IMG/VR virus record: IMGVR_UViG_2695420859_000017
Length of the DNA: 9,321 bases
Reading direction: 5' to 3' (one strand)
Source of the DNA: a virus
Taxonomy: Duplodnaviria > Heunggongvirae > Uroviricota > Caudoviricetes
Shown: positions 1-9,321 of the stretch, in pieces
How the letters are laid out: the number at the start of each line of letters is the position of its first letter
How positions within the stretch are numbered: position 1 is the stretch's first letter
Position numbers and translations under genes: made by a program
The notes under the pieces: model-generated
The model's database searches: none
Seen by the model: only the letters and a program-made list of their open reading frames with translations
What the model was told of the DNA's origin: nothing

Positions 1-769
1 TGTTTTTCAGGCGGGTGAATGCCTGACTGGTTTCATCCGCCCTGTCAGTCACATCCTGCTTAAGTGCGGAAAAGGCAGTTTCCATCTCAGCGAGGCGCTG
101 CTCAGTGGCGCTCAGTTTTTCCTGCACATGTTCAGCGACAGCGGTCACCGCTTCATGCACGTCATTCAGACGGGCGTCATCGCTGGCCTGTTTGCGGCCA
201 AAAATGGATTTCACCTTTTCGGTCAGGGCGGTGAACACGGTTTCAGGCAGGTCTTCAAATTCCAGCTCAACGGGCGTTGCCACTGAAATCAGGTTTTCAG
301 GGCTTAATTTGAAGCGGTTCAGGGGGTTGTGTTTTGCCGTGCGGCAGAATTCCAGGTATTCCGTGCCGAGGCTTGCCGGGTCATCGGTGACAGCCAGCCC
401 CACCAGATAACATTTGCCGGTATTGGCAAAGTTCGGCTGAATTTCCATTGAGGTGTAGACCTTCTGCGCGGCCTTGTTCATCGCGATAAGGTCATCGGTC
501 GGGGTGATTTTCGCAAACAGCGCCCATTTGCCTTTCAGCGCCGAATCGTCATCAATCTTTTCGGCCTTCAGTTCGGCCACATCGCCATAACGTTTAAAAA
601 TACCGTCAGGCAGGATGCCGCGCAGATGTTCCAGGTTAATGCGGCAACCATAGACACGCGGGTCAAAGGTTTCCGCCATTTCCTGAATATCCTGCGCACT
701 GATGACACGCCCGTCACAGGTGTCACCCTCAACGCCGATACGAAAGAATTTTGAGACTTTTTTTGCCAT
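1..769 (-). CDS. O: Capsid scaffolding protein GpO, partial (start codon at 767..769; 3' end lies beyond the window start)
   Basis: Reverse complement of 700..769 translates MAKKVSKFFRIGVEGDTCDGRVIS, which I recognise as the N-terminus of P2 GpO. The frame is open to position 1. It is absent from the ORF track because its stop is outside the window. It is divergent from the terminase gene, as in P2. Confidence 0.85.
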   Translation of the reverse strand, partial: MAKKVSKFFRIGVEGDTCDGRVISAQDIQEMAETFDPRVYGCRINLEHLRGILPDGIFKRYGDVAELKAEKIDDDSALKGKWALFAKITPTDDLIAMNKAAQKVYTSMEIQPNFANTGKCYLVGLAVTDDPASLGTEYLEFCRTAKHNPLNRFKLSPENLISVATPVELEFEDLPETVFTALTEKVKSIFGRKQASDDARLNDVHEAVTAVAEHVQEKLSATEQRLAEMETAFSALKQDVTDRADETSQAFTRLKN

Positions 770-806
770 TGTCAGGAGTCCTGAATAGTGATTAGAGGAG
801 TCACAT

Positions 807-826
807 GTCGGCATCAGTTTCCCGAC
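807..826. promoter_or_regulatory. Dyad GTCGG-N10-CCGAC in the divergent O/P intergenic region; possible activator or operator site for the late promoters
   Basis: Seen directly: 5-bp perfect inverted repeat with a 10-bp spacer, between the O start (769) and P start (943). It does not match the TGT-N12-ACA spacing that I recall for Ogr-dependent late promoters, so function is unassigned. Confidence 0.2.
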
Positions 827-942
827 GATGCGCATCCTCCGCCATCAGTCCCGGATGGCTTATCGCTGACACAACAGCACCTTAGCGAATCGCGGGGCGC
901 GACTCAGTAGCCTTGCCGTGTATTCATCACGGCGAGGTATTC

Positions 943-2715
943 ATGACCATCACCACAGACACCACTCTTTTACACGACCCGCGTCGTCAGGCGGCGCTGC
1001 TGTACTGGCAGGGGTTTTCCGTGCCGCAGATTGCCGCCATGTTGCAGATGAAACGCCCGACGGTGCAGAGCTGGAAACAGCGCGACGGCTGGGACAGCGT
1101 TGCCCCCATCAGCCGTGTCGAAATGAGCCTGGAAGCGCGGCTGACCCAGCTCATCATCAAACCGCAGAAAACCGGCGGTGACTTCAAGGAAATTGACCTG
1201 CTCGGACGCCAGATTGAACGACTGGCACGGGTAAACCGCTACAGTCAGACCGGCAACGAGGCAGACCTTAATCCGAACGTCGCTAACCGCAACAAAGGCG
1301 AGCGTCGCAAACCGAAAAAGAATTTTTTCAGTGACGAAGCCATCGAAAAGCTGGAGCAGATTTTCTTTGAGCAGTCTTTCGACTATCAGTTGCACTGGTA
1401 TCGCGCCGGGCTTGAGCACCGCATCCGCGATATACTGAAATCCCGCCAGATTGGCGCAACGTTTTATTTTTCCCGCGAGGCGCTGCTGCGCGCCCTGAAA
1501 ACCGGCCATAACCAGATTTTTCTGTCGGCCAGTAAAACGCAGGCGTATGTGTTCCGCGAATACATCATCGCCTTTGCCCGTCTGGTTGACGTTGACCTGA
1601 CCGGTGACCCGATTGTCCTGGGCAATAACGGCGCAAAACTAATTTTTCTCGGCACCAACTCCAACACCGCGCAGAGCCATAACGGCGACCTGTACGTCGA
1701 CGAGATTTTCTGGATCCCGAATTTTCAGGTACTGCGTAAGGTGGCATCAGGTATGGCCTCACAGAGTCACCTGCGCTCGACCTATTTCTCCACCCCGTCC
1801 ACGCTGGCGCACGACGCCTACCCGTTCTGGTCAGGTGAACTGTTCAACCGGGGACGCGCCAGCGCCGCCGAACGCGTGGAAATCGACGTCAGTCATAACG
1901 CCCTTGCCGGTGGTCTTCTCTGTGCGGACGGCCAGTGGCGGCAGATTGTCACCATTGAGGATGCCCTGAAAGGTGGCTGCACACTGTTCGACATTGAGCA
2001 GCTCAAACGTGAAAACAGCGCCGACGATTTTAAAAACCTGTTCATGTGTGAATTTGTTGACGACAAGGCGTCGGTGTTCCCGTTCGAGGAGCTGCAACGC
2101 TGCATGGTCGACACGCTGGAAGAATGGGAAGACTATGCGCCGTTTGCCGCCAATCCGTTCGGCTCACGTCCGGTATGGATTGGTTACGACCCGTCACACC
2201 GTGGCGACAGTGCCGGATGCGTGGTGCTGGCACCGCCGGTGGTGGCCGGTGGCAAATTCAGAATACTTGAGCGTCACCAGTGGAAAGGCATGGACTTTGC
2301 CACCCAGGCTGAATCCATCCGCAAACTCACCGAAAAATACAACGTCGAATACATCGGAATTGATGCCACCGGCCTCGGTGTCGGCGTGTTCCAGCTCGTT
2401 CGCTCGTTCTATCCCGCCGCGCGCGATATCCGCTACACGCCGGAAATGAAAACCGCAATGGTGCTCAAGGCAAAAGACGTTATTCGCCGTGGCTGTCTGG
2501 AATATGACGTCAGCGCCACCGACATCACCAGCTCGTTTATGGCTATCCGCAAGACCATGACCAGCAGCGGACGCAGCGCCACCTATGAGGCCAGCCGCAG
2601 CGAGGAAGCCAGCCACGCCGACCTCGCCTGGGCGACCATGCACGCCCTGTTAAATGAGCCACTCACCGCCGGTATCAGCACCCCGCTGACATCCACCATT
2701 CTGGAGTTTTACTGA
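943..2715 (+). CDS. P: Terminase large (ATPase) subunit GpP
   Basis: 590-codon ORF beginning MTITTDTTLLHDPRRQAALLYWQGFSVPQIAAMLQMKRPTVQSWKQRDGWD, recognised as P2-family GpP. ATG at 943 follows GAGG at 933..936; the ORF-track start at 913 is an upstream TTG and less likely. Stop TGA overlaps the next ATG (ATGA at 2715..2718). Confidence 0.9.
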   Translation: MTITTDTTLLHDPRRQAALLYWQGFSVPQIAAMLQMKRPTVQSWKQRDGWDSVAPISRVEMSLEARLTQLIIKPQKTGGDFKEIDLLGRQIERLARVNRYSQTGNEADLNPNVANRNKGERRKPKKNFFSDEAIEKLEQIFFEQSFDYQLHWYRAGLEHRIRDILKSRQIGATFYFSREALLRALKTGHNQIFLSASKTQAYVFREYIIAFARLVDVDLTGDPIVLGNNGAKLIFLGTNSNTAQSHNGDLYVDEIFWIPNFQVLRKVASGMASQSHLRSTYFSTPSTLAHDAYPFWSGELFNRGRASAAERVEIDVSHNALAGGLLCADGQWRQIVTIEDALKGGCTLFDIEQLKRENSADDFKNLFMCEFVDDKASVFPFEELQRCMVDTLEEWEDYAPFAANPFGSRPVWIGYDPSHRGDSAGCVVLAPPVVAGGKFRILERHQWKGMDFATQAESIRKLTEKYNVEYIGIDATGLGVGVFQLVRSFYPAARDIRYTPEMKTAMVLKAKDVIRRGCLEYDVSATDITSSFMAIRKTMTSSGRSATYEASRSEEASHADLAWATMHALLNEPLTAGISTPLTSTILEFY

Positions 2716-3872
2716 TGAGCAAGAAAAAAGGGAAAACACCGCAACCTGCGGCAAAAACAATGATCGCCAGCGCCCCGAAAATGGAGGCATTCACCTTTGG
2801 CGAGCCGGTACCGGTACTCGACCGCCGTGACATTCTTGATTACGTCGAATGCATCAGTAACGGCAGATGGTATGAGCCACCGGTCAGCTTTACCGGTCTG
2901 GCAAAAAGCCTGCGTGCCGCCGTGCATCACAGCTCCCCGATTTACGTCAAACGCAATATTCTGGCCTCGACATTTATCCCGCATCCGTGGCTTTCACAAC
3001 AGGATTTCAGCCGCTTTGTGCTGGATTTTCTGGTGTTCGGTAATGCGTTTCTGGAAAAGCGTTACAGCACCACCGGTAAGGTCATCAGACTGGAAACCTC
3101 ACCGGCAAAATATACCCGCCGTGGTGTGGAAGAGGATGTTTACTGGTGGGTGCCGTCCTTCAACGAGCCGACAGCCTTCACGCCCGGCTCCGTGTTTCAC
3201 CTGCTGGAGCCGGATATTAATCAGGAGCTGTACGGCCTGCCGGAATATCTCAGCGCCCTTAATTCTGCCTGGCTGAATGAGTCGGCCACGCTGTTTCGCC
3301 GCAAGTATTACGAAAACGGTGCTCATGCCGGATATATCATGTACGTCACTGATGCCGTGCAGGATCGCAACGATATCGAAATGCTTCGCGAAAACATGGT
3401 TAAGTCGAAAGGCCGCAACAACTTTAAAAATCTGTTTCTCTATGCCCCACAGGGGAAAGCCGACGGCATTAAAATTATCCCGCTCAGTGAAGTGGCAACG
3501 AAGGACGATTTTTTTAATATCAAAAAAGCCAGCGCCGCAGACCTGCTGGACGCGCACCGCATCCCTTTTCAGTTGATGGGCGGCAAGCCGGAGAACGTCG
3601 GGTCGCTGGGTGATATTGAGAAAGTGGCAAAGGTCTTTGTACGCCGTGGCTGTCTGGAATATGACGTCAGCGCCACCGACATCACCAGCTCGTTTATGGC
3701 TATCCGCAAGACCATGACCAGCAGCGGACGCAGCGCCACCTATGAGGCCAGCCGCAGCGAGGAAGCCAGCCACGCCGACCTCGCCTGGGCGACCATGCAC
3801 GCCCTGTTAAATGAGCCACTCACCGCCGGTATCAGCACCCCGCTGACATCCACCATTCTGGAGTTTTACTGA
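2715..3872 (+). pseudogene. Chimeric ORF: portal (GpQ) N-terminal ~309 codons fused in frame to a duplicated terminase C-terminal 76 codons
   Basis: Residues 1 to ~309 match the full portal copy at 4916..5935. From about nt 3642 the sequence shows no differences on visual comparison from terminase 2485..2715 (RRGCLEYDVSATDITSSFMAIRK...STILEFY), ending at a second copy of the P-stop/Q-start overlap. Confidence 0.55.
3642..3872 (+). repeat. Duplicate copy of the terminase 3' end (equals 2485..2715)
   Basis: Visual base-by-base comparison of 3642..3872 with 2485..2715 found no differences, including the terminal tactgATGagc junction. Confidence 0.8.
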
Positions 3873-4271
3873 TGAGCAAGAAAAAAGGGAAAACACCGCA
3901 ACCTGCGGCAAAAAAAATGACCGCCAGCACCCCGAAAATGGAGGCATTCACCTTTGGCGAGCCGGTGCCGGTACTCGACCGCCGTGACATTCTGGATTAC
4001 GTCGAATGCATCAGTAACGGCAGATGGTATGAGCCACCGGTCAGCTTTACCGGTCTGGCAAAAAGCCTGCGTGCTGCCGTGCATCACAGCTCACCGATTT
4101 ACGTCAAACGCAATATTCTGGCGTCGACATTTATCCCGCATCCGTGGCTTTCCCAGCAGGATTTCAGCCGCTTTGTGCTGGATTTTCTGGTGTTCGGTAA
4201 TGCGTTTCTGGAAAAGCGTTACAGCACCACCGGTAAAGTTATCAGGCTGGAAACCTCACCGGCAAAATATA
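3872..4271 (+). pseudogene. Portal (GpQ) 5' fragment, ~133 codons, diverged allele
   Basis: Begins MSKKKGKTPQPAAKKMTASTPKMEAF and tracks the portal to ...ETSPAKY. It differs from the other two copies by scattered single-base changes (KTMIASAP becomes KKMTASTP, plus apparently synonymous changes). After ~4271 the portal frame runs into unrelated sequence and stops at 4471. Confidence 0.55.
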
Positions 4272-4916
4272 TCGGTGTTCCCGTTCGAGGAGCTGCAACG
4301 CTGCATGGTCGACACGCTGGAAGAATGGGAAGACTATGCACCCTTTGCCGCCAATCCGTTCGGCTCCCGCCCGGTATGGATTGGTTACGACCCGTCACAC
4401 CGTGGCGACAGCGCCGGATGCGTGGTGCTGGCACCGCCGGTGGTGGCCGGTGGCAAATTCAGAATACTTGAGCGTCACCAGTGGAAAGGCATGGACTTTG
4501 CCACCCAGGCGGAATCCATCCGCAAACTCACCGAAAAATACAACGTCGAATACATCGGTATTGATGCCACCGGCCTCGGTGTCGGCGTGTTCCAGCTCGT
4601 GCGCTCGTTCTATCCTGCCGCGCGCGACATCCGCTACACGCCGGAAATGAAAACCGCAATGGTGCTCAAGGCAAAAGACGTTATCCGCCGTGGCTGTCTG
4701 GAATACGACGTCAGCGCCACCGACATCACCAGCTCGTTTATGGCTATCCGTAAGACCATGACCAGCAGCGGACGCAGCGCCACCTATGAGGCCAGCCGCA
4801 GCGAGGAAGCCAGCCACGCCGACCTCGCCTGGGCGACCATGCACGCCCTGTTAAATGAGCCACTCACCGCCGGTATCAGCACCCCGCTGACATCCACCAT
4901 TCTGGAGTTTTACTGA
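4272..4916 (+). pseudogene. Terminase (GpP) 3' fragment, ~214 codons, diverged allele, out of frame with the preceding portal fragment
   Basis: 4272..4916 corresponds to terminase 2071..2715 (VFPFEELQRCMVDTLEEWEDYAPFAANPF ... STILEFY) with several apparently synonymous single-base differences. It lies in a different frame from the portal fragment upstream; the ORF-track entry 3954..4916 is this frame reading backwards by chance. Confidence 0.55.
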
Positions 4917-5935
4917 TGAGCAAGAAAAAAGGGAAAACACCGCAACCTGCGGCAAAAACAATGATCGCCAGCGCCCCGAAAATGGAGGCATTCACCTTTG
5001 GCGAGCCGGTACCGGTACTCGACCGCCGTGACATTCTTGATTACGTCGAATGCATCAGTAACGGCAGATGGTATGAGCCACCGGTCAGCTTTACCGGTCT
5101 GGCAAAAAGCCTGCGTGCCGCCGTGCATCACAGCTCCCCGATTTACGTCAAACGCAATATTCTGGCCTCGACATTTATCCCGCATCCGTGGCTTTCACAA
5201 CAGGATTTCAGCCGCTTTGTGCTGGATTTTCTGGTGTTCGGTAATGCGTTTCTGGAAAAGCGTTACAGCACCACCGGTAAGGTCATCAGACTGGAAACCT
5301 CACCGGCAAAATATACCCGCCGTGGTGTGGAAGAGGATGTTTACTGGTGGGTGCCGTCCTTCAACGAGCCGACAGCCTTCGCGCCCGGCTCCGTGTTTCA
5401 CCTGCTGGAGCCGGATATTAATCAGGAACTGTACGGCCTGCCGGAATATCTCAGCGCCCTTAACTCTGCCTGGCTGAATGAGTCGGCCACGCTGTTCCGC
5501 CGCAAGTATTACGAAAATGGCGCACATGCCGGATACATCATGTACGTCACTGATGCCGTGCAGGACCGCAACGATATCGAAATGCTTCGCGAAAACATGG
5601 TCAAGTCGAAAGGCCGCAACAACTTTAAAAATCTGTTTCTCTATGCCCCACAGGGAAAAGCCGACGGCATTAAAATTATCCCGCTCAGTGAAGTGGCGAC
5701 GAAGGACGATTTTTTTAATATCAAAAAAGCCAGCGCGGAAGATCTAATGAGTGCCCATCGAGTCCCCCCGCAAATGATGGGGATGATGCCTAATAATGCG
5801 GGAGGATTTGGCGATGTAGTTAAAGCGGCTAAAGTTTTTGTCAGGAATGAGTTAGGGCATCTACAATCGCGAATGAAGGAATTGAACTCATGGATAGGTG
5901 AAACAGTTATAACATTTAACAATTACTCGTTATAA
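4916..5935 (+). CDS. Q: Portal protein GpQ, full length (339 aa), with a diverged AT-rich 3' end
   Basis: ORF starting MSKKKGKTPQPAAKTMIASAPKMEAFTFGEPVPVLDRRDILDYVECISNGRWYEPP, recognised as the P2-family portal. ATG overlaps the stop of the preceding terminase-derived segment. It is the only copy with a portal-type C-terminus and stop. Confidence 0.85.
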   Translation: MSKKKGKTPQPAAKTMIASAPKMEAFTFGEPVPVLDRRDILDYVECISNGRWYEPPVSFTGLAKSLRAAVHHSSPIYVKRNILASTFIPHPWLSQQDFSRFVLDFLVFGNAFLEKRYSTTGKVIRLETSPAKYTRRGVEEDVYWWVPSFNEPTAFAPGSVFHLLEPDINQELYGLPEYLSALNSAWLNESATLFRRKYYENGAHAGYIMYVTDAVQDRNDIEMLRENMVKSKGRNNFKNLFLYAPQGKADGIKIIPLSEVATKDDFFNIKKASAEDLMSAHRVPPQMMGMMPNNAGGFGDVVKAAKVFVRNELGHLQSRMKELNSWIGETVITFNNYSL

Positions 5936-5941
5936 ACCCTG

Positions 5942-5965
5942 CAGGCTTTGGCTCACCAAAGCCTG
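5942..5965. terminator. Hairpin between the convergent portal gene and the cargo operon (10-bp perfect stem CAGGCTTTGG / CCAAAGCCTG, 4-nt loop)
   Basis: Seen directly. Lies in the 35-bp gap between the Q stop (5935) and the minus-strand stop at 5971. No strong T-tract on either side, so intrinsic-terminator strength is uncertain. Confidence 0.45.
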
Positions 5966-5970
5966 TAAGA

Positions 5971-6588
5971 TCAAGCAGATAGGCAAAACGTTTCTGTTTG
6001 CCCCAAGTGTTCAAACACAGTAATCGATGTTACTTTTCCGGCACTTATTTTGTTAAGGAACTTCAATATTTGTTGAGGCTCCTCCATGACTGCTGTTTTC
6101 TTGATTATAAATCCCTCAAGATTTTTCAAGCTGTATCGCTGACTTGAGTTCTCAAGAGCAGCAATCATTGCCGAACTGCGCATATCTCTATGTCCACTAG
6201 CTCTACAAACGACAGCATAATTTAAATTAAGCTCTACAAAATTTTGCCTTGTCAACTCTGGAAGGTGTTTACATACAAAATGAAATAAAGTCGTAACACC
6301 TTCATGTATTTTCAACCTTATATCATCCTTTTGTGAACGTCCTTCTTTAAATTCAATGAAGTACAATTTATCTTCATATAAAAATAAAGCATCCGGTGAT
6401 TTTTCTTTAAACTCACGCTTATAAACAGGCGAGCAATTTAACACCGTATCATAGTTAAAGCCCTTCGAATCACAAATAATAAAATTCCGAGCCCCTGCAT
6501 CATTGTAGCTTAATCCGGTTACATCAACCATTGAATCAGGGTATACTTCACACAGTTTTCTAAAAACAAGTTCCTCATTAGAAATCAT
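5971..6588 (-). CDS. Hypothetical 205-aa protein, second gene of the cargo operon; family not recognised; possible PD-(D/E)xK-like nuclease motifs
   Basis: ATG at 6586..6588 is preceded by AGGAG (reverse complement of 6596..6600) at 7-nt spacing and overlaps the upstream gene by 11 nt (ATGATTTCTAA). Strongly AT-rich. Contains FIICD (res 36-40) and LFLYEDK / FIEFK (res 68-81), which could be PD-(D/E)xK motifs II and III; this is inference only. Confidence 0.7.
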   Translation of the reverse strand: MISNEELVFRKLCEVYPDSMVDVTGLSYNDAGARNFIICDSKGFNYDTVLNCSPVYKREFKEKSPDALFLYEDKLYFIEFKEGRSQKDDIRLKIHEGVTTLFHFVCKHLPELTRQNFVELNLNYAVVCRASGHRDMRSSAMIAALENSSQRYSLKNLEGFIIKKTAVMEEPQQILKFLNKISAGKVTSITVFEHLGQTETFCLSA

Positions 6589-7906
6589 CCAAATACTCCT
6601 GATTCAATTCTTTTAATGGTGATGCCAAAAGATTAATTGCATATGCAACATTATCAGTAATATCAACAAAAGATGTAAACTCTTCCCCAGGGAATCGCTC
6701 GCTTATATAGAACCGATTTTCAATCCCAATTTTATCGCTATAATGTTTAAGAGCATCAATAATATACGGGCTATGTGTTGTAATTATTATATCAACCCCC
6801 ATAGACACTAACTCACAAATAATCTCAGCATAGAAAACCTGCCATTTTGGATGTAAGTTCACCTCTGGCTCATCAATAATCAGTAACGAGTTATCTACTG
6901 CTGCCCCGCACTTAACAAGCATATCAAGAATACCTAAAGACTTTATTCCTGACGCAATATTACCCGATGTGACTTTATAGCCTTGCTTCTCTAGAAAAAA
7001 ATCATTCTTTTCAATATCATAAACCACTTCACCACAGAAAGTAGCATTGATTTTGTTAGATATACGCAGTGACTCTTTTAAAAATGAGCCATCATCAAAA
7101 ATATCCGAATGCACAAATAAATTATAAACTGAATCGCTTAATTTTATTGATAGATCTTTCACATGCAATGGAACAGTTAGACGTCCTGATTCACCATTAC
7201 TATCAAATAAAGTTTTAGCAAAACGAACCAAATTATGAAATTGCATAATACTTGGAGAGTCAACATAGGTTGCGTCGACATATCCTAAGCCATCAGTATA
7301 ATCAAATTGTGATATACCATCTTTAGTCCATTTAATATCAATTAACTGACTAACACCATCAACAACTTCCAGAGATGCTTTAACTGGATTTTGATTACCC
7401 TTCTGAATAATTTCGCCTCTAAATTCAGAGTAAAAGGCCTTACGCAGAGCACGGTTGATAGCAGATAGCTCATCATCTGGCTCAAGCATTATATCTCTGA
7501 TTTTTCTTATATCAGAGAGTACAGAATCAGCCATCAATTCTGGAAGAAGCCCTTCCTCAATCAAATTATATAGATAACTCTCTCTCTCAGCCAAAGTTTT
7601 AGAGATATCTATTTTTAGAGAGGCATAAAACTTTCTTGGATTGAATAACTCTCTAATTTCCGGCGTAGCAGCAATATTAATCCTCCTACGCAGATTAAAA
7701 TATATTTTCTCTACGATAGATGTAATTCTATCCTCTTTGTCTTCTTCTAAATCCTCTTGATAACGAGATATCGCCTTTACCATTGAAAACAATATTTTCC
7801 CTACGGTACTCTTCCCCGTATCATTTTCACCAGTTATGACAGTTAAACCACCAACTGAAACATCAGCTTCTGCAATAGTTCCAAAATTATTAATTTTTAT
7901 ACGCAT
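6578..7906 (-). CDS. OLD/ABC-family (AAA_15/AAA_21-like) ATPase, 442 aa, with no Toprim or other nuclease domain
   Basis: N-terminal Walker A GENDTGKST (nt 7805..7831), C-terminal Walker B LLIIDEPE (nt 6863..6886) and H-loop TTHSP (nt 6767..6781), with ~300 residues between the Walker motifs. This layout is typical of OLD/GajA/AriA/PtuA-type ATPases. Spot counts of 60-nt lines give roughly 27-30% GC against about 60% in the structural genes. Confidence 0.8.
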   Translation of the reverse strand: MRIKINNFGTIAEADVSVGGLTVITGENDTGKSTVGKILFSMVKAISRYQEDLEEDKEDRITSIVEKIYFNLRRRINIAATPEIRELFNPRKFYASLKIDISKTLAERESYLYNLIEEGLLPELMADSVLSDIRKIRDIMLEPDDELSAINRALRKAFYSEFRGEIIQKGNQNPVKASLEVVDGVSQLIDIKWTKDGISQFDYTDGLGYVDATYVDSPSIMQFHNLVRFAKTLFDSNGESGRLTVPLHVKDLSIKLSDSVYNLFVHSDIFDDGSFLKESLRISNKINATFCGEVVYDIEKNDFFLEKQGYKVTSGNIASGIKSLGILDMLVKCGAAVDNSLLIIDEPEVNLHPKWQVFYAEIICELVSMGVDIIITTHSPYIIDALKHYSDKIGIENRFYISERFPGEEFTSFVDITDNVAYAINLLASPLKELNQEYLDDF

Positions 7907-7946
7907 AAACTATCTCACTGTACGCCAGATATCCAACCTTATGAAT

Positions 7947-7975
7947 ACTTTAGCATATTTCCAAAAAGATGACAC
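7947..7975 (-). promoter_or_regulatory. Candidate sigma70 promoter for the cargo operon (GTGTCA-N17-TAAAGT with a TG extended -10)
   Basis: Read on the minus strand between cos and the ATPase start codon. A 4/6 match at -35 and TGnTAAAGT at -10 would leave a ~40-nt 5' UTR. Pattern match by eye only. Confidence 0.25.
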
Positions 7976-7999
7976 TGGTGGTTGCAGGCCTCGCGCGCA

Positions 8000-8018
8000 G
8001 TGCTTTCCCCGCCTCGCC
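8000..8018 (-). other. cos: cos site: 19-nt cohesive-end sequence identical to P2 (GGCGAGGCGGGGAAAGCAC on the minus strand)
   Basis: Reverse complement of 8000..8018 is GGCGAGGCGGGGAAAGCAC, followed by CTGCGCGC, matching my recollection of the P2 left end. It sits in a GC-rich block, in the expected neighbourhood of the portal gene. Confidence 0.75.
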
Positions 8019-8112
8019 CGCCCGCTTCACGGGGCGGTTTTAATGCAGTTGCATAGATACTATGGATCCGCACCAGTCCTGACCGCACGCAGCCTGAACG
8101 GACATCCCCAGC

Positions 8113-8141
8113 GCATGCAAAAACATTCACTGGTTGCATGC
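8113..8141. other. Inverted repeat GCATGCAA-N13-TTGCATGC followed by CTTTTT
   Basis: Seen directly, ~100 bp from cos. Could be a protein-binding site or a weak terminator. Confidence 0.2.
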
Positions 8142-8302
8142 ATAGCTTTTTAAGTACGCCATACCGCAACTGTACATTTTTAAGCAATTGGCAACTTTAA
8201 AAAATTTACATTGCTTTCAAGACCTTATCATCCGTAGTCTCTGTTTTTTACTTTGAGCTACATCAATAAAATCTCAAACATGTTTAATGCAAAGCCCTTG
8301 TT

Positions 8303-8356
8303 ACACAACATAGAATGTATGTCTAGAAACAACGACATACTATATGTTGTGTTTTT
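8303..8356 (+). other. Long imperfect hairpin (arms ACACAACATAGAATGTATGTC / GACATACTATATGTTGTGT, 10-nt loop) followed by a T-run; terminator-like or sRNA 3' end
   Basis: Seen directly: 10-bp and 7-bp perfect stem segments separated by a small internal loop, then TTTTT at 8352..8356. An A-tract is lacking on the other side, so orientation is plus. Confidence 0.4.
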
Positions 8357-8418
8357 CCGGCTCTCTGTTCGGTGATATGCCAAATCACTTTGCGTTTAAA
8401 CAGAGCATTATTTCAGGG

Positions 8419-8433
8419 CAAGACTTCGCTCAA
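8419..8433 (+). repeat. 15-bp direct repeat CAAGACTTCGCTCAA, copy 1
   Basis: Exact 15-mer found again at 8683..8697; the two copies bracket the small ORF and its terminator. Confidence 0.5.
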
Positions 8434-8496
8434 AAGTCATTCCACCTAAGAAGCGCATATACCGGTGGAAGTTGCCCTCTACTTACAGGAGGCAAT

Positions 8497-8610
8497 ATGA
8501 AGAAATGCTATTACTGCATTCTCGTTCTGGCCCTCTTTGGCTATCCAAACGGTAGTCCGAGTGGTTTGTCAGTAAACGTCAGTAATATCAATGTCAGCAT
8601 TATGCTTTAA
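8497..8610 (+). CDS. Small hydrophobic peptide, 37 aa (MKKCYYCILVLALFGYPNGSPSGLSVNVSNINVSIML); function unknown
   Basis: ATG at 8497 is preceded by a consensus AGGAGG at 8487..8492 (4-nt spacing). Stop at 8608..8610 is followed 13 nt later by a strong intrinsic terminator. The N-terminus is KK followed by a ~13-residue hydrophobic stretch. Short length keeps confidence low. Confidence 0.35.
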   Translation: MKKCYYCILVLALFGYPNGSPSGLSVNVSNINVSIML

Positions 8611-8622
8611 TATGCTTCAAAC

Positions 8623-8652
8623 AAAAAAACCACCTGCCAGGGTGGTTTTTTT
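8623..8652. terminator. Rho-independent terminator, bidirectional form (AAAAAAACCACC-TGCCAG-GGTGGTTTTTTT)
   Basis: Seen directly: perfect GC-containing stem with a 6-nt loop, A-tract upstream and T7 downstream. Confidence 0.8.
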
Positions 8653-8682
8653 GCGCCCATCATCAATACGATGAAAGACTGA

Positions 8683-8697
8683 CAAGACTTCGCTCAA
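8683..8697 (+). repeat. 15-bp direct repeat CAAGACTTCGCTCAA, copy 2
   Basis: Identical to 8419..8433; AAGACT-like motifs also occur at 8675..8680 and 8696..8700. Confidence 0.5.
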
Positions 8698-8912
8698 GAC
8701 GAATTATGCGTCGACATAAGGTTACCCGCAATGATTTTATTAGACTAAATGGATGGCCTTTTATGACCCGGATCAAACGGCTGTCCTTACCGACATGCTA
8801 GTCACTCAATAGCATTTAGCCTTCTAATTCAGCATGCTATTGACCTTCTGCTGCCCCATAACTGCTCCGCATAAGCCATTCAATGCCATATCAAATCACG
8901 TTGTGTTTTTAC

Positions 8913-9321
8913 TCAAATGGGTAACGAGAACCCCGGCCACTCATCAGCAACCGGATACGTGAATTTTTTCCCGTCATAATTTACGGTCGCGCCACGCGCC
9001 AGCGCCTCAAGCTCCCATCGTTGCGGCCTGATACCGTTCTGAGCGAGGTCAACGCGGATACGGGTAATTTGCAATCGTTCAGACCTGGTCAGTCTGGCAG
9101 ATGGTGCAATTTCATGCGGTTTTAACGGGATTCCGTTTCTTTGCTGACGATTTGGTGTTCTCAGTCCGTGTTTTAATGCGCCCCTGAGCACCATCACTAC
9201 CTCCGGGTCACTCCATTCGATAACACCGTCATCTACCAGATTAAGCACTGCTGCGGCGTGCTCAGAAGGTGTGGGAGCCGGTAACGAAGTATCACCACCG
9301 GTGAGCTTTCCACAGTTATTG
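8913..9321 (-). CDS. Phage protein, 3' portion only (gene starts beyond the window end); probably the last gene of the early/replication operon
   Basis: The minus-strand frame is open from the window edge (…TGGDTSLPAPTPSEHAAAVLNLVDDGVIEWSDPEV…) to TGA at 8913..8915. The ORF-track start at 9248 is an internal GTG. GC content is backbone-like. Product assignment is positional inference only. Confidence 0.55.
   Translation of the reverse strand, partial: NNCGKLTGGDTSLPAPTPSEHAAAVLNLVDDGVIEWSDPEVVMVLRGALKHGLRTPNRQQRNGIPLKPHEIAPSARLTRSERLQITRIRVDLAQNGIRPQRWELEALARGATVNYDGKKFTYPVADEWPGFSLPI

Follow-up and report, generated by a model that had tools for sequence, protein, structure and literature searches.

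A two-gene ATPase and predicted nuclease pair as a probable anti-phage cassette beside the cos site of a P2-like prophage

The question raised by the locus described here is what function is served by two overlapping genes of foreign base composition located beside the cos site of a P2-like prophage. The window analyzed, a 9,321-nt stretch of the IMG/VR virus record IMGVR_UViG_2695420859_000017, is part of a P2-like prophage of Escherichia coli and carries on its plus strand the genes for the terminase ATPase (913-2715) and the portal (4916-5935). Convergent with these, on the minus strand, are gene A (6578-7906), encoding a 442-aa (50 kDa) ATP-binding cassette (ABC) ATPase, and gene B (5971-6588), encoding a 205-aa (23.5 kDa) protein that we predict to be a PD-(D/E)xK nuclease; the two open reading frames (ORFs) overlap by 11 nt. 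We consider it probable that the two genes form an autonomous anti-phage cassette, borne as cargo in the cos-proximal hotspot of a P2-like prophage and pairing an ABC-ATPase sensor with a PD-(D/E)xK nuclease effector. A preliminary description of this DNA had likewise proposed an anti-phage system encoded by two overlapping minus-strand genes. The coordinates it gave were borne out, and the anti-phage proposal is supported by the hotspot location of the locus, the defense ATPases that are the best matches of gene A, the predicted nuclease partner and the strict conservation of the two genes as a mobile pair.

An ABC ATPase and a predicted nuclease

Comparison with Pfam, which the preliminary description had proposed, assigned gene A to AAA_15/AAA_21 only and gene B to no family at a meaningful E-value. 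The Walker A (GENDTGKST, residues 26-34, with K32), Walker B (LLIIDEPE, residues 341-348, with D345/E346) and H-loop (TTHSP, residues 376-380, with H378) motifs of gene A lie where that description had placed them, and an ABC signature, ASGIKS, is found at residues 318-323. These catalytic motifs (Walker A, signature, Walker B/D-loop plus H-loop) did not vary in 64 homologs, down to 36% identity. In the predicted model, a mostly helical insert occupies approximately residues 32-162 and a short beta/alpha extension (residues 397-438, ~45 residues after the H-loop) forms the C-terminus. Neither a long coiled coil nor a zinc hook was found in gene A, the helical insert being only ~130 residues long. 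A Toprim or other nuclease domain was absent both from the Pfam results and from the model, which ends in the short tail at residue 438, in line with the earlier statement that the 442-aa protein carries no Toprim domain. Gene A falls within the SMC/Rad50/RecF/OLD clade of ABC ATPases, and its predicted ABC fold is near those of PtuA, AriA and GajA and closest to the SMC/Rad50 heads; calling it an OLD-type ATPase without a nuclease was a fair description, although the fold is nearer to PtuA and the SMC heads. Among the models of PADLOC-DB, the best matches were HEC-02A (114 bits, 1.8e-33) and PD-T4-4_A (105 bits, 1.7e-30), followed by PDC-M47A and NsnB and then by AriA, PtuA and Old, all of them confined to the conserved core.

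As judged from its sequence and predicted model, gene B is a divergent restriction-endonuclease-fold protein whose catalytic motif is intact, and hence a predicted nuclease, assigned to the PD-(D/E)xK fold because of its invariant PD...ExK residues and fold matches. The preliminary description had been unable to assign this partner, a verdict that no longer stands, and had correctly noted that it has no CxxC/HNH pattern; none is present in the sequence and no HNH match was obtained. In an alignment of 48 gene B homologs, P65-D66 and E79-x-K81 were invariant, followed by R91, K93 and H95/E96, which gives a predicted catalytic triad of D66 (in SPDALF) and E79-x-K81 (in FIEFKEG), with a conserved helix carrying R91/K93/H95/E96 after it. 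An exhaustive profile search with gene B returned 582 representative clusters at E <= 1e-3, so that the superfamily comprises at least 582 clusters as defined at 50% identity, ranging over Gammaproteobacteria, Betaproteobacteria, Campylobacterota and probably Firmicutes. Even in a 118-member alignment of this superfamily, with a mean column identity of 14%, D66 and E79 were invariant and K81 and K93 were conserved in at least 90%; a Pfam scan of the 118 members identified no family.

The predicted model of gene B has the alpha-beta-beta-beta-alpha-beta core that defines PD-(D/E)xK proteins, with an acidic residue at a strand start and the (D/E)xK on the next strand. Its best fold matches were DNA endonucleases, namely N.BspD6I, FokI, NucS, PspGI, EcoRII, NgoMIV and Shedu; Foldseek against the PDB gave nothing at E <= 0.001, and a sequence search of solved structures gave chance-level matches only. 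Weak matches to cap-snatching RNA endonucleases were obtained both with Pfam (L_protein_N, E 0.022) and, in agreement, with Foldseek (the L proteins of Lassa, lymphocytic choriomeningitis (LCMV) and La Crosse viruses). Gene B belongs to a family that no database describes, as neither Pfam, NCBIfam nor PADLOC held a family for it at a meaningful E-value and the exact PHROGs families of the two proteins, phrog_14430 and phrog_25533, are both annotated as 'unknown function'.

Location, conservation and expression of the pair

The pair had been described as lying between portal and cos, and this is where it was found. The portal gene stops at 5935, and an exact match to GGCGAGGCGGGGAAAGCAC, which we take to be the 19-nt P2 cohesive-end sequence, lies at 8000-8018 on the minus strand, 94 nt upstream of the gene A ATG. 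This 19-mer has a single exact occurrence in the window, where 0.01 chance matches are expected, and 13 related loci also have the cos motif immediately upstream of gene A. Since several P2-family phage records moreover start or end within 8000-8153, the interval from cos to the portal gene is taken up by the pair; cos is the upstream boundary of the cassette and is a property of the phage, not of the two-gene system. In the complete E. coli 600468 genome, the matching stretch is annotated in the order terminase, portal, 'hypothetical protein' (WP_000624949) and 'AAA family ATPase' (WP_001220547), followed by ~1 kb free of genes and then by the replication endonuclease gpA. The cassette locus is the gpA-cos-gpQ hotspot, which in P2-like phages holds anti-phage systems, several of them validated, and which carries old and tin in P2 itself (Rousset et al., 2022). 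The operon has a GC content of 0.349 compared to 0.547 for bases 1-5935, which hold the structural genes, and is thus at about two thirds of their value and not at half of it, as had been described; the factor of about one half does hold for the GC content of third codon positions (0.26/0.31 in the operon genes compared to 0.58/0.70 in the structural genes).

A homolog of gene A was found directly upstream of a homolog of gene B in 33/33 loci, with an overlap or a gap of at most 59 nt. The settings of the pair include a gammaproteobacterial integrase island, a transposase-flanked locus of Pseudomonas, Klebsiella P2-like prophages that carry the cassette in the opposite orientation, and the chromosome of Sulfurovum, where it lies between housekeeping genes without a mobile element. 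In a Janthinobacterium P2-like prophage, the cassette lies where P2 carries its non-essential orf30, with tail gene S on one side and baseplate gene V on the other. Among 23 viral contigs with the pair, 18 carry P2-type portal and/or terminase genes beside gene B. The cassette was also seen on the gpA side of cos in one locus (L031) and, by the strand of gpA, in the opposite orientation in another (L034). Owing to the varied orientation, the presence on both sides of cos and the S-V site, the pair is regarded as an autonomous cassette for which several hotspots serve as insertion sites.

Purifying selection acts on both genes, the ratio of nonsynonymous to synonymous substitution rates (dN/dS) being 0.08 for gene A and 0.20 for gene B against a relative of 95-98% identity. 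Comparisons with more distant loci were mostly uninformative in this respect because the synonymous rate (dS) was saturated, both ORFs being still full-length. The pair was present, and always intact, in 8/5,426 complete E. coli genomes; this corresponds to 8/2,136 E. coli genomes with the cos flank, so that it is absent from >99% of P2-like prophages, and the exact proteins were found on ~400 contigs.

Two very distant pairs, in which gene B has 19-25% identity, have neighbors of their own. In L010, a gene with an RNA 2'-phosphotransferase domain (PF01885, KptA/Tpt1; 4595-5152) starts 19 nt after the pair; this is a single case. If it recurs, the link would be a hint that RNA is the substrate or that nucleic acids are ADP-ribosylated. 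In L011, an AbiH-domain gene (3033-4211) lies ~770 bp downstream of the pair in a neighborhood resembling a defense island, and the host is probably a Firmicute since ComK and DnaB_2 genes are nearby. Among diverged P2-like phages (L017, L020-L027 and L031-L033), identities were 50-78% for A, 40-73% for B, 63-80% for portal and 30-60% for gpA, the divergence of the cargo being roughly in step with that of portal, unlike that of gpA. In some lineages the cassette may thus have stayed beside portal for a long time, even though the hotspot is reported to turn over rapidly.

The cassette appears to have its own promoter at 7947-7975 on the minus strand, with a -35 element GTGTCA (7970-7975), a spacer of 17 nt that has an extended-10 TG at its end (7954-7955) and a -10 element TAAAGT (7947-7952). 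This proposal is based on cross-locus conservation and not on a generic scan: TATGCTAAAGT, located 38-45 nt upstream of the gene A start, is the sole block conserved across 10 diverged loci, four positions of its -10 being the same in all of them, whereas a generic promoter and terminator scan upstream of gene A gave nothing above shuffle background and did not list the predicted promoter. The stop codon of gene A (TAA, 6578-6580) falls within codons 3-4 of gene B, and a Shine-Dalgarno AGGAG (6596-6600, minus strand) lies within the end of gene A, 7 nt before the gene B ATG, which together suggest that gene B is translationally coupled to gene A. At the other end, the 35-nt gap between the portal stop at 5935 and the gene B stop at 5971 contains a perfect GC-rich hairpin of 10-12 bp (5942-5965) with a dG of -21.4 kcal/mol on the minus and -19.7 kcal/mol on the plus strand (z -4.6 and -5.5, respectively), and 0/200 shuffles folded as well. 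This is probably a bidirectional transcription stop or an RNA-stabilizing hairpin, missed by the terminator scan because it is without a clean U-tract.

Other features of the window were also noted. The sole terminator-like site detected within 5800-8400 was a GC-rich hairpin followed by TTTT (CCGCCCGCTTCACGGGGCGG TTTTAATGCA, 8018-8037), which directly abuts the cos cohesive-end sequence. Between cos and the gpA stop codon at 8913, RefSeq genomes annotate no gene in the ~900 bp of 8019-8912, which has only short ORFs (<=88 aa), a GC content of 0.36-0.46 and no Rfam family or tRNA, Rfam and tRNA scans of the window having returned no matches; this segment may be left over from cargo that the hotspot held earlier. 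The terminase/portal region contains, at 2071-4969, two extra chimeric segments in which the portal 5' part is fused to the terminase 3' end, with a 300-nt junction repeat present three times (at 2469, 3626 and 4670; 97-99% identity), and the window exceeds the equivalent region (7,120 bp) of seven complete E. coli genomes by 2,201 bp. Such a structure seems either to stem from the mis-assembly of P2-like prophages residing together or to be a genuine product of tandem recombination, and the chimeric segments would leave the full terminase gene (913-2715) and the last full portal copy (4916-5935) undisrupted.

Proposed mechanism and alternative explanations

We propose that a lysogen would express both genes constitutively from the extended-10 promoter of the cassette, with B coupled to A, as sequence and conservation indicate. 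By analogy with other ABC ATPases, A would dimerize head-to-head around ATP and hold B inactive, probably bound at the C-terminal extension of A, as predicted for WonA-WonB; such a complex is suggested because PD-T4-4 forms higher-order complexes and because PARIS and Septu complexes have been solved. More speculatively, the variable helical insert of A (~32-162) may sense a phage-derived cue, upon which ATP binding or hydrolysis would license B. Gene B would then cleave nucleic acid by means of D66/E79/K81 and a divalent metal, a site to which invariance and fold point, and the infection would be aborted or the invader destroyed.

Regarding this outcome, we slightly prefer an abortive, translation- or RNA-directed activity to direct DNA degradation, while holding either one tentatively. 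The preference derives from the phenotype of WonAB, which consists of abortive infection and translation arrest with intact DNA and a Lon-labile nuclease (PMC12137116), and from PD-T4-4, the purified complex of which cut 0/11 DNA substrates. It also derives from the targeting of tRNA by PARIS, by retron-Eco7 (Septu-type PtuAB effectors) and, according to a 2026 preprint, by P2 Old, as well as from the weak but agreeing matches of B to cap-snatching RNA endonucleases. Taking this further, the pair might represent a large unnamed ABC-ATPase/nuclease immune family, the ~200-aa effector of which would be a new PD-(D/E)xK clade acting as an ATP-licensed, abortive RNase (on tRNA, rRNA or mRNA) and not as a DNase, a proposal we find possible but rather doubtful.

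Some observations weigh against the reading as an anti-phage cassette. Gene B fails every named effector model (PD-T4-4_B, HEC-02B and WonB), so that the analogy rests on architecture and fold and not on family membership, and no published test of the pair was found in the papers and supplements searched. The lean toward RNA is further opposed by the best structural matches of gene B being DNA nucleases, and direct DNA cleavage therefore remains a strong rival. In such an ATP-dependent, restriction-like and DNA-degrading defense, A would recognize or translocate on foreign or broken DNA and B would cut it, as in Hachiman, AbpAB or Shedu. The fold of gene A, closest to the DNA-binding SMC/Rad50 heads, would suit this role, and several PD-(D/E)xK nuclease-NTPase (nucleoside triphosphatase) complexes degrade DNA in vitro. 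We nevertheless judge it unlikely, though a serious candidate, as WonAB, among the architecturally closest relatives, arrests translation while the DNA stays intact, PD-T4-4 had no activity on any DNA substrate tried, the weak matches of B to L_protein_N and to the Lassa, LCMV and La Crosse proteins point to RNA, and no methylase or other self-protection gene is present.

A tightly coupled pair of a predicted nuclease and a regulator on mobile elements could also be a toxin-antitoxin or addiction module that stabilizes the prophage, with B as a toxic nuclease neutralized by A and no primary role in defense; Pfam annotates AAA_21 as 'putative AbiEii toxin, Type IV TA system' and AriA is labeled 'antitoxin' in PDB entries. 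However, the WonAB nuclease is toxic only with an active ATPase, which excludes simple neutralization, deletion of either PARIS gene is non-toxic, a passive antitoxin would not need the catalytic motifs that are invariant in 64 gene A homologs, and the Sulfurovum copy has no mobile element to stabilize, making this explanation improbable. The location beside cos brings to mind a role in the phage life cycle, as an accessory of DNA-end processing like Rad50/Mre11 or SbcCD, of recombination or of packaging. Such a role is very improbable, given that the pair is missing from nearly all P2-like prophages (found in 8/2,136 genomes and in 57/18,150 hotspot loci), occurs outside phages as well as at another phage site, namely between tail genes S and V, varies in its orientation and in the side of cos on which it lies and has a foreign base composition, while the gene A insert of ~130 residues lacks a long coiled coil or zinc hook and gene B is not an Mre11-type phosphoesterase. 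Finally, since the content of the hotspot swaps rapidly and the system is rare in E. coli, the genes might be decaying or functionless cargo hitch-hiking through recombination, but this is hardly credible when both ORFs are intact in every locus examined with dN/dS values as low as those above, even deep divergence has left the catalytic residues unchanged, the promoter motif is retained across loci and the exact proteins occur on so many contigs. We therefore retain the anti-phage cassette as the probable explanation of the pair.

Comparison with known systems

The preliminary description had regarded the locus as possibly an unclassified system. This holds, gene B having no PADLOC, Pfam or NCBIfam model, although the pair as such is already catalogued as P2-hotspot system #73 'AAA_15/AAA_21', with 57 occurrences in 18,150 hotspot loci (Rousset et al., 2022, Table S5B). 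The proteins of system #73 are identical to those of the present pair (WP_001220547 and WP_000624949) and at the same locus, with the partner listed as 'hypothetical', and neither sequence is in the table of cloned and tested systems of that study. The accessions of the pair were not found in the texts of the papers searched and were absent from the DefensePredictor supplements and from the text of a 2026 domain-centric discovery paper; in a 2026 preprint on P2/P4 hotspots, P4 loci alone were tested.

As to whether both proteins belong to an already named defense family, gene A gave core-only matches to named ATPases and gene B gave none. The classes 1-4 of the OLD-family nucleases were rejected, as gene A has no fused Toprim and the Old model covers the ABC core only (283-332/578). 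Membership in PARIS (AriAB) is contradicted by the lack of a DUF4435 or AriB match of gene B at E <= 1 (Pfam and PADLOC) and by its PD-(D/E)xK instead of Toprim fold, and membership in Septu (PtuAB) by the lack of an HNH or PtuB match and of a CxxC or H-N-H pattern; the effector fold is Toprim/DUF4435 in PARIS and Old and HNH in Septu and retron-Eco7 (PtuA/PtuB), and gene B has neither. Menshen was rejected because the match of gene A is restricted to the core and gene B has none. GAPS4, a two-gene PD-(D/E)xK system of Vibrio, differs in its nuclease-first order, HGxD-SxK motif and ring-forming non-ATPase partner, compared to the ATPase-first order and PD...ExK motif found here.

Three validated systems combine an ABC ATPase with a PD-(D/E)xK nuclease, namely HEC-02, PD-T4-4 and WonAB. 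HEC-02 consists, like the present pair, of two genes, encoding an ABC ATPase and a NERD-like PD-(D/E)xK nuclease, both of which are required for defense (Payne et al., bioRxiv 10.1101/2024.01.29.577857). Although gene A has its best PADLOC match in HEC-02A, the match is partial (C-terminal ABC core, profile positions 172-295/338), and gene B matched neither HEC-02B nor NERD, even at E <= 1. The three HEC-02B models weakly match 5, 2 and 2 of the 118 gene B superfamily members (~1e-5), and a few distant members touch NERD or Cas4 models at a similar level (~1e-5), so gene B and HEC-02B likely share a superfamily. HEC-02 is embedded in Hma/Hachiman loci, whereas the present pair is in a prophage hotspot. 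PD-T4-4 is an 'ATPase, nuclease' pair of E. coli of 1,973 bp, compared to 1,936 bp here (Vassallo et al., 2022, PMC9519451), and its effector has been described as PD-(D/E)xK. PD-T4-4_A, the second-best match of gene A, aligned in two partial stretches, and by model comparison PD-T4-4_B matched neither gene B (E <= 1) nor any of the 118 superfamily members (E <= 1e-3); membership in PD-T4-4 was rejected on this partial match of gene A and the missing match of gene B.

Mechanistic data exist for WonAB alone among the systems of this kind. The operon type was first noted by Krishnan et al. (2020), and WonAB is, like the present pair, prophage-borne, with a Toprim-less ABC ATPase followed by a small PD-(D/E)xK protein that has its catalytic D...ExK on consecutive strands, as in gene B; both proteins, the ATPase motifs and the nuclease lysine are required (2025, PMC12137116). 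In contrast, WonB has ~145 aa, an N-terminus rich in Cys and the motif (V/I)ELKGSD, compared to the 205 aa and FIEFKEG of gene B. Membership in WonAB was rejected, since hhalign of the B family against WonB (three WonB sequences) gave probabilities of 0.2% and 2% with a 23-column motif alone aligned, and BLASTP aligned gene A with WonA only at the ABC motifs (28% over 102 residues). No EFKEG/EFKNG-type sequence was present among the matches listed in the WonAB and 'novel REase' (restriction endonuclease) hit tables.

With its partner assigned to the PD-(D/E)xK fold, the pair joins an already validated architectural kind rather than founding a new type, and it is less novel than the earlier description implied, this architecture being known from HEC-02, PD-T4-4 and WonAB; the pair is also catalogued as #73. 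Since both architecture and hotspot are established, the pair alone opens no new question; the remaining interest is that current defense-annotation tools do not see its large and conserved effector family, hundreds of loci being unannotated because PADLOC-DB 2.0, Pfam, NCBIfam and PHROGs do not recognize the effector. If protective, the pair would add a widespread and compact (1.9 kb) system, currently undetectable, to the defense catalogue. With regard to P2 biology, the pair is a further documented case of cargo that takes the place of old and tin at the cos hotspot. Should the effector prove to be an RNase, it would extend an emerging rule by which ABC-ATPase-controlled nucleases of unrelated folds, namely Toprim (PARIS, OLD), HNH (retron-Eco7/Septu) and restriction endonuclease (WonAB), converge on the translation apparatus. 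A protective pair would also be a fourth, independently diverged example of the ABC-ATPase and PD-(D/E)xK design, and comparison with HEC-02, PD-T4-4 and WonAB could reveal which parts of the ATPase, such as the inserts and the C-terminal tail, set trigger specificity, and whether DNA or RNA is the target.

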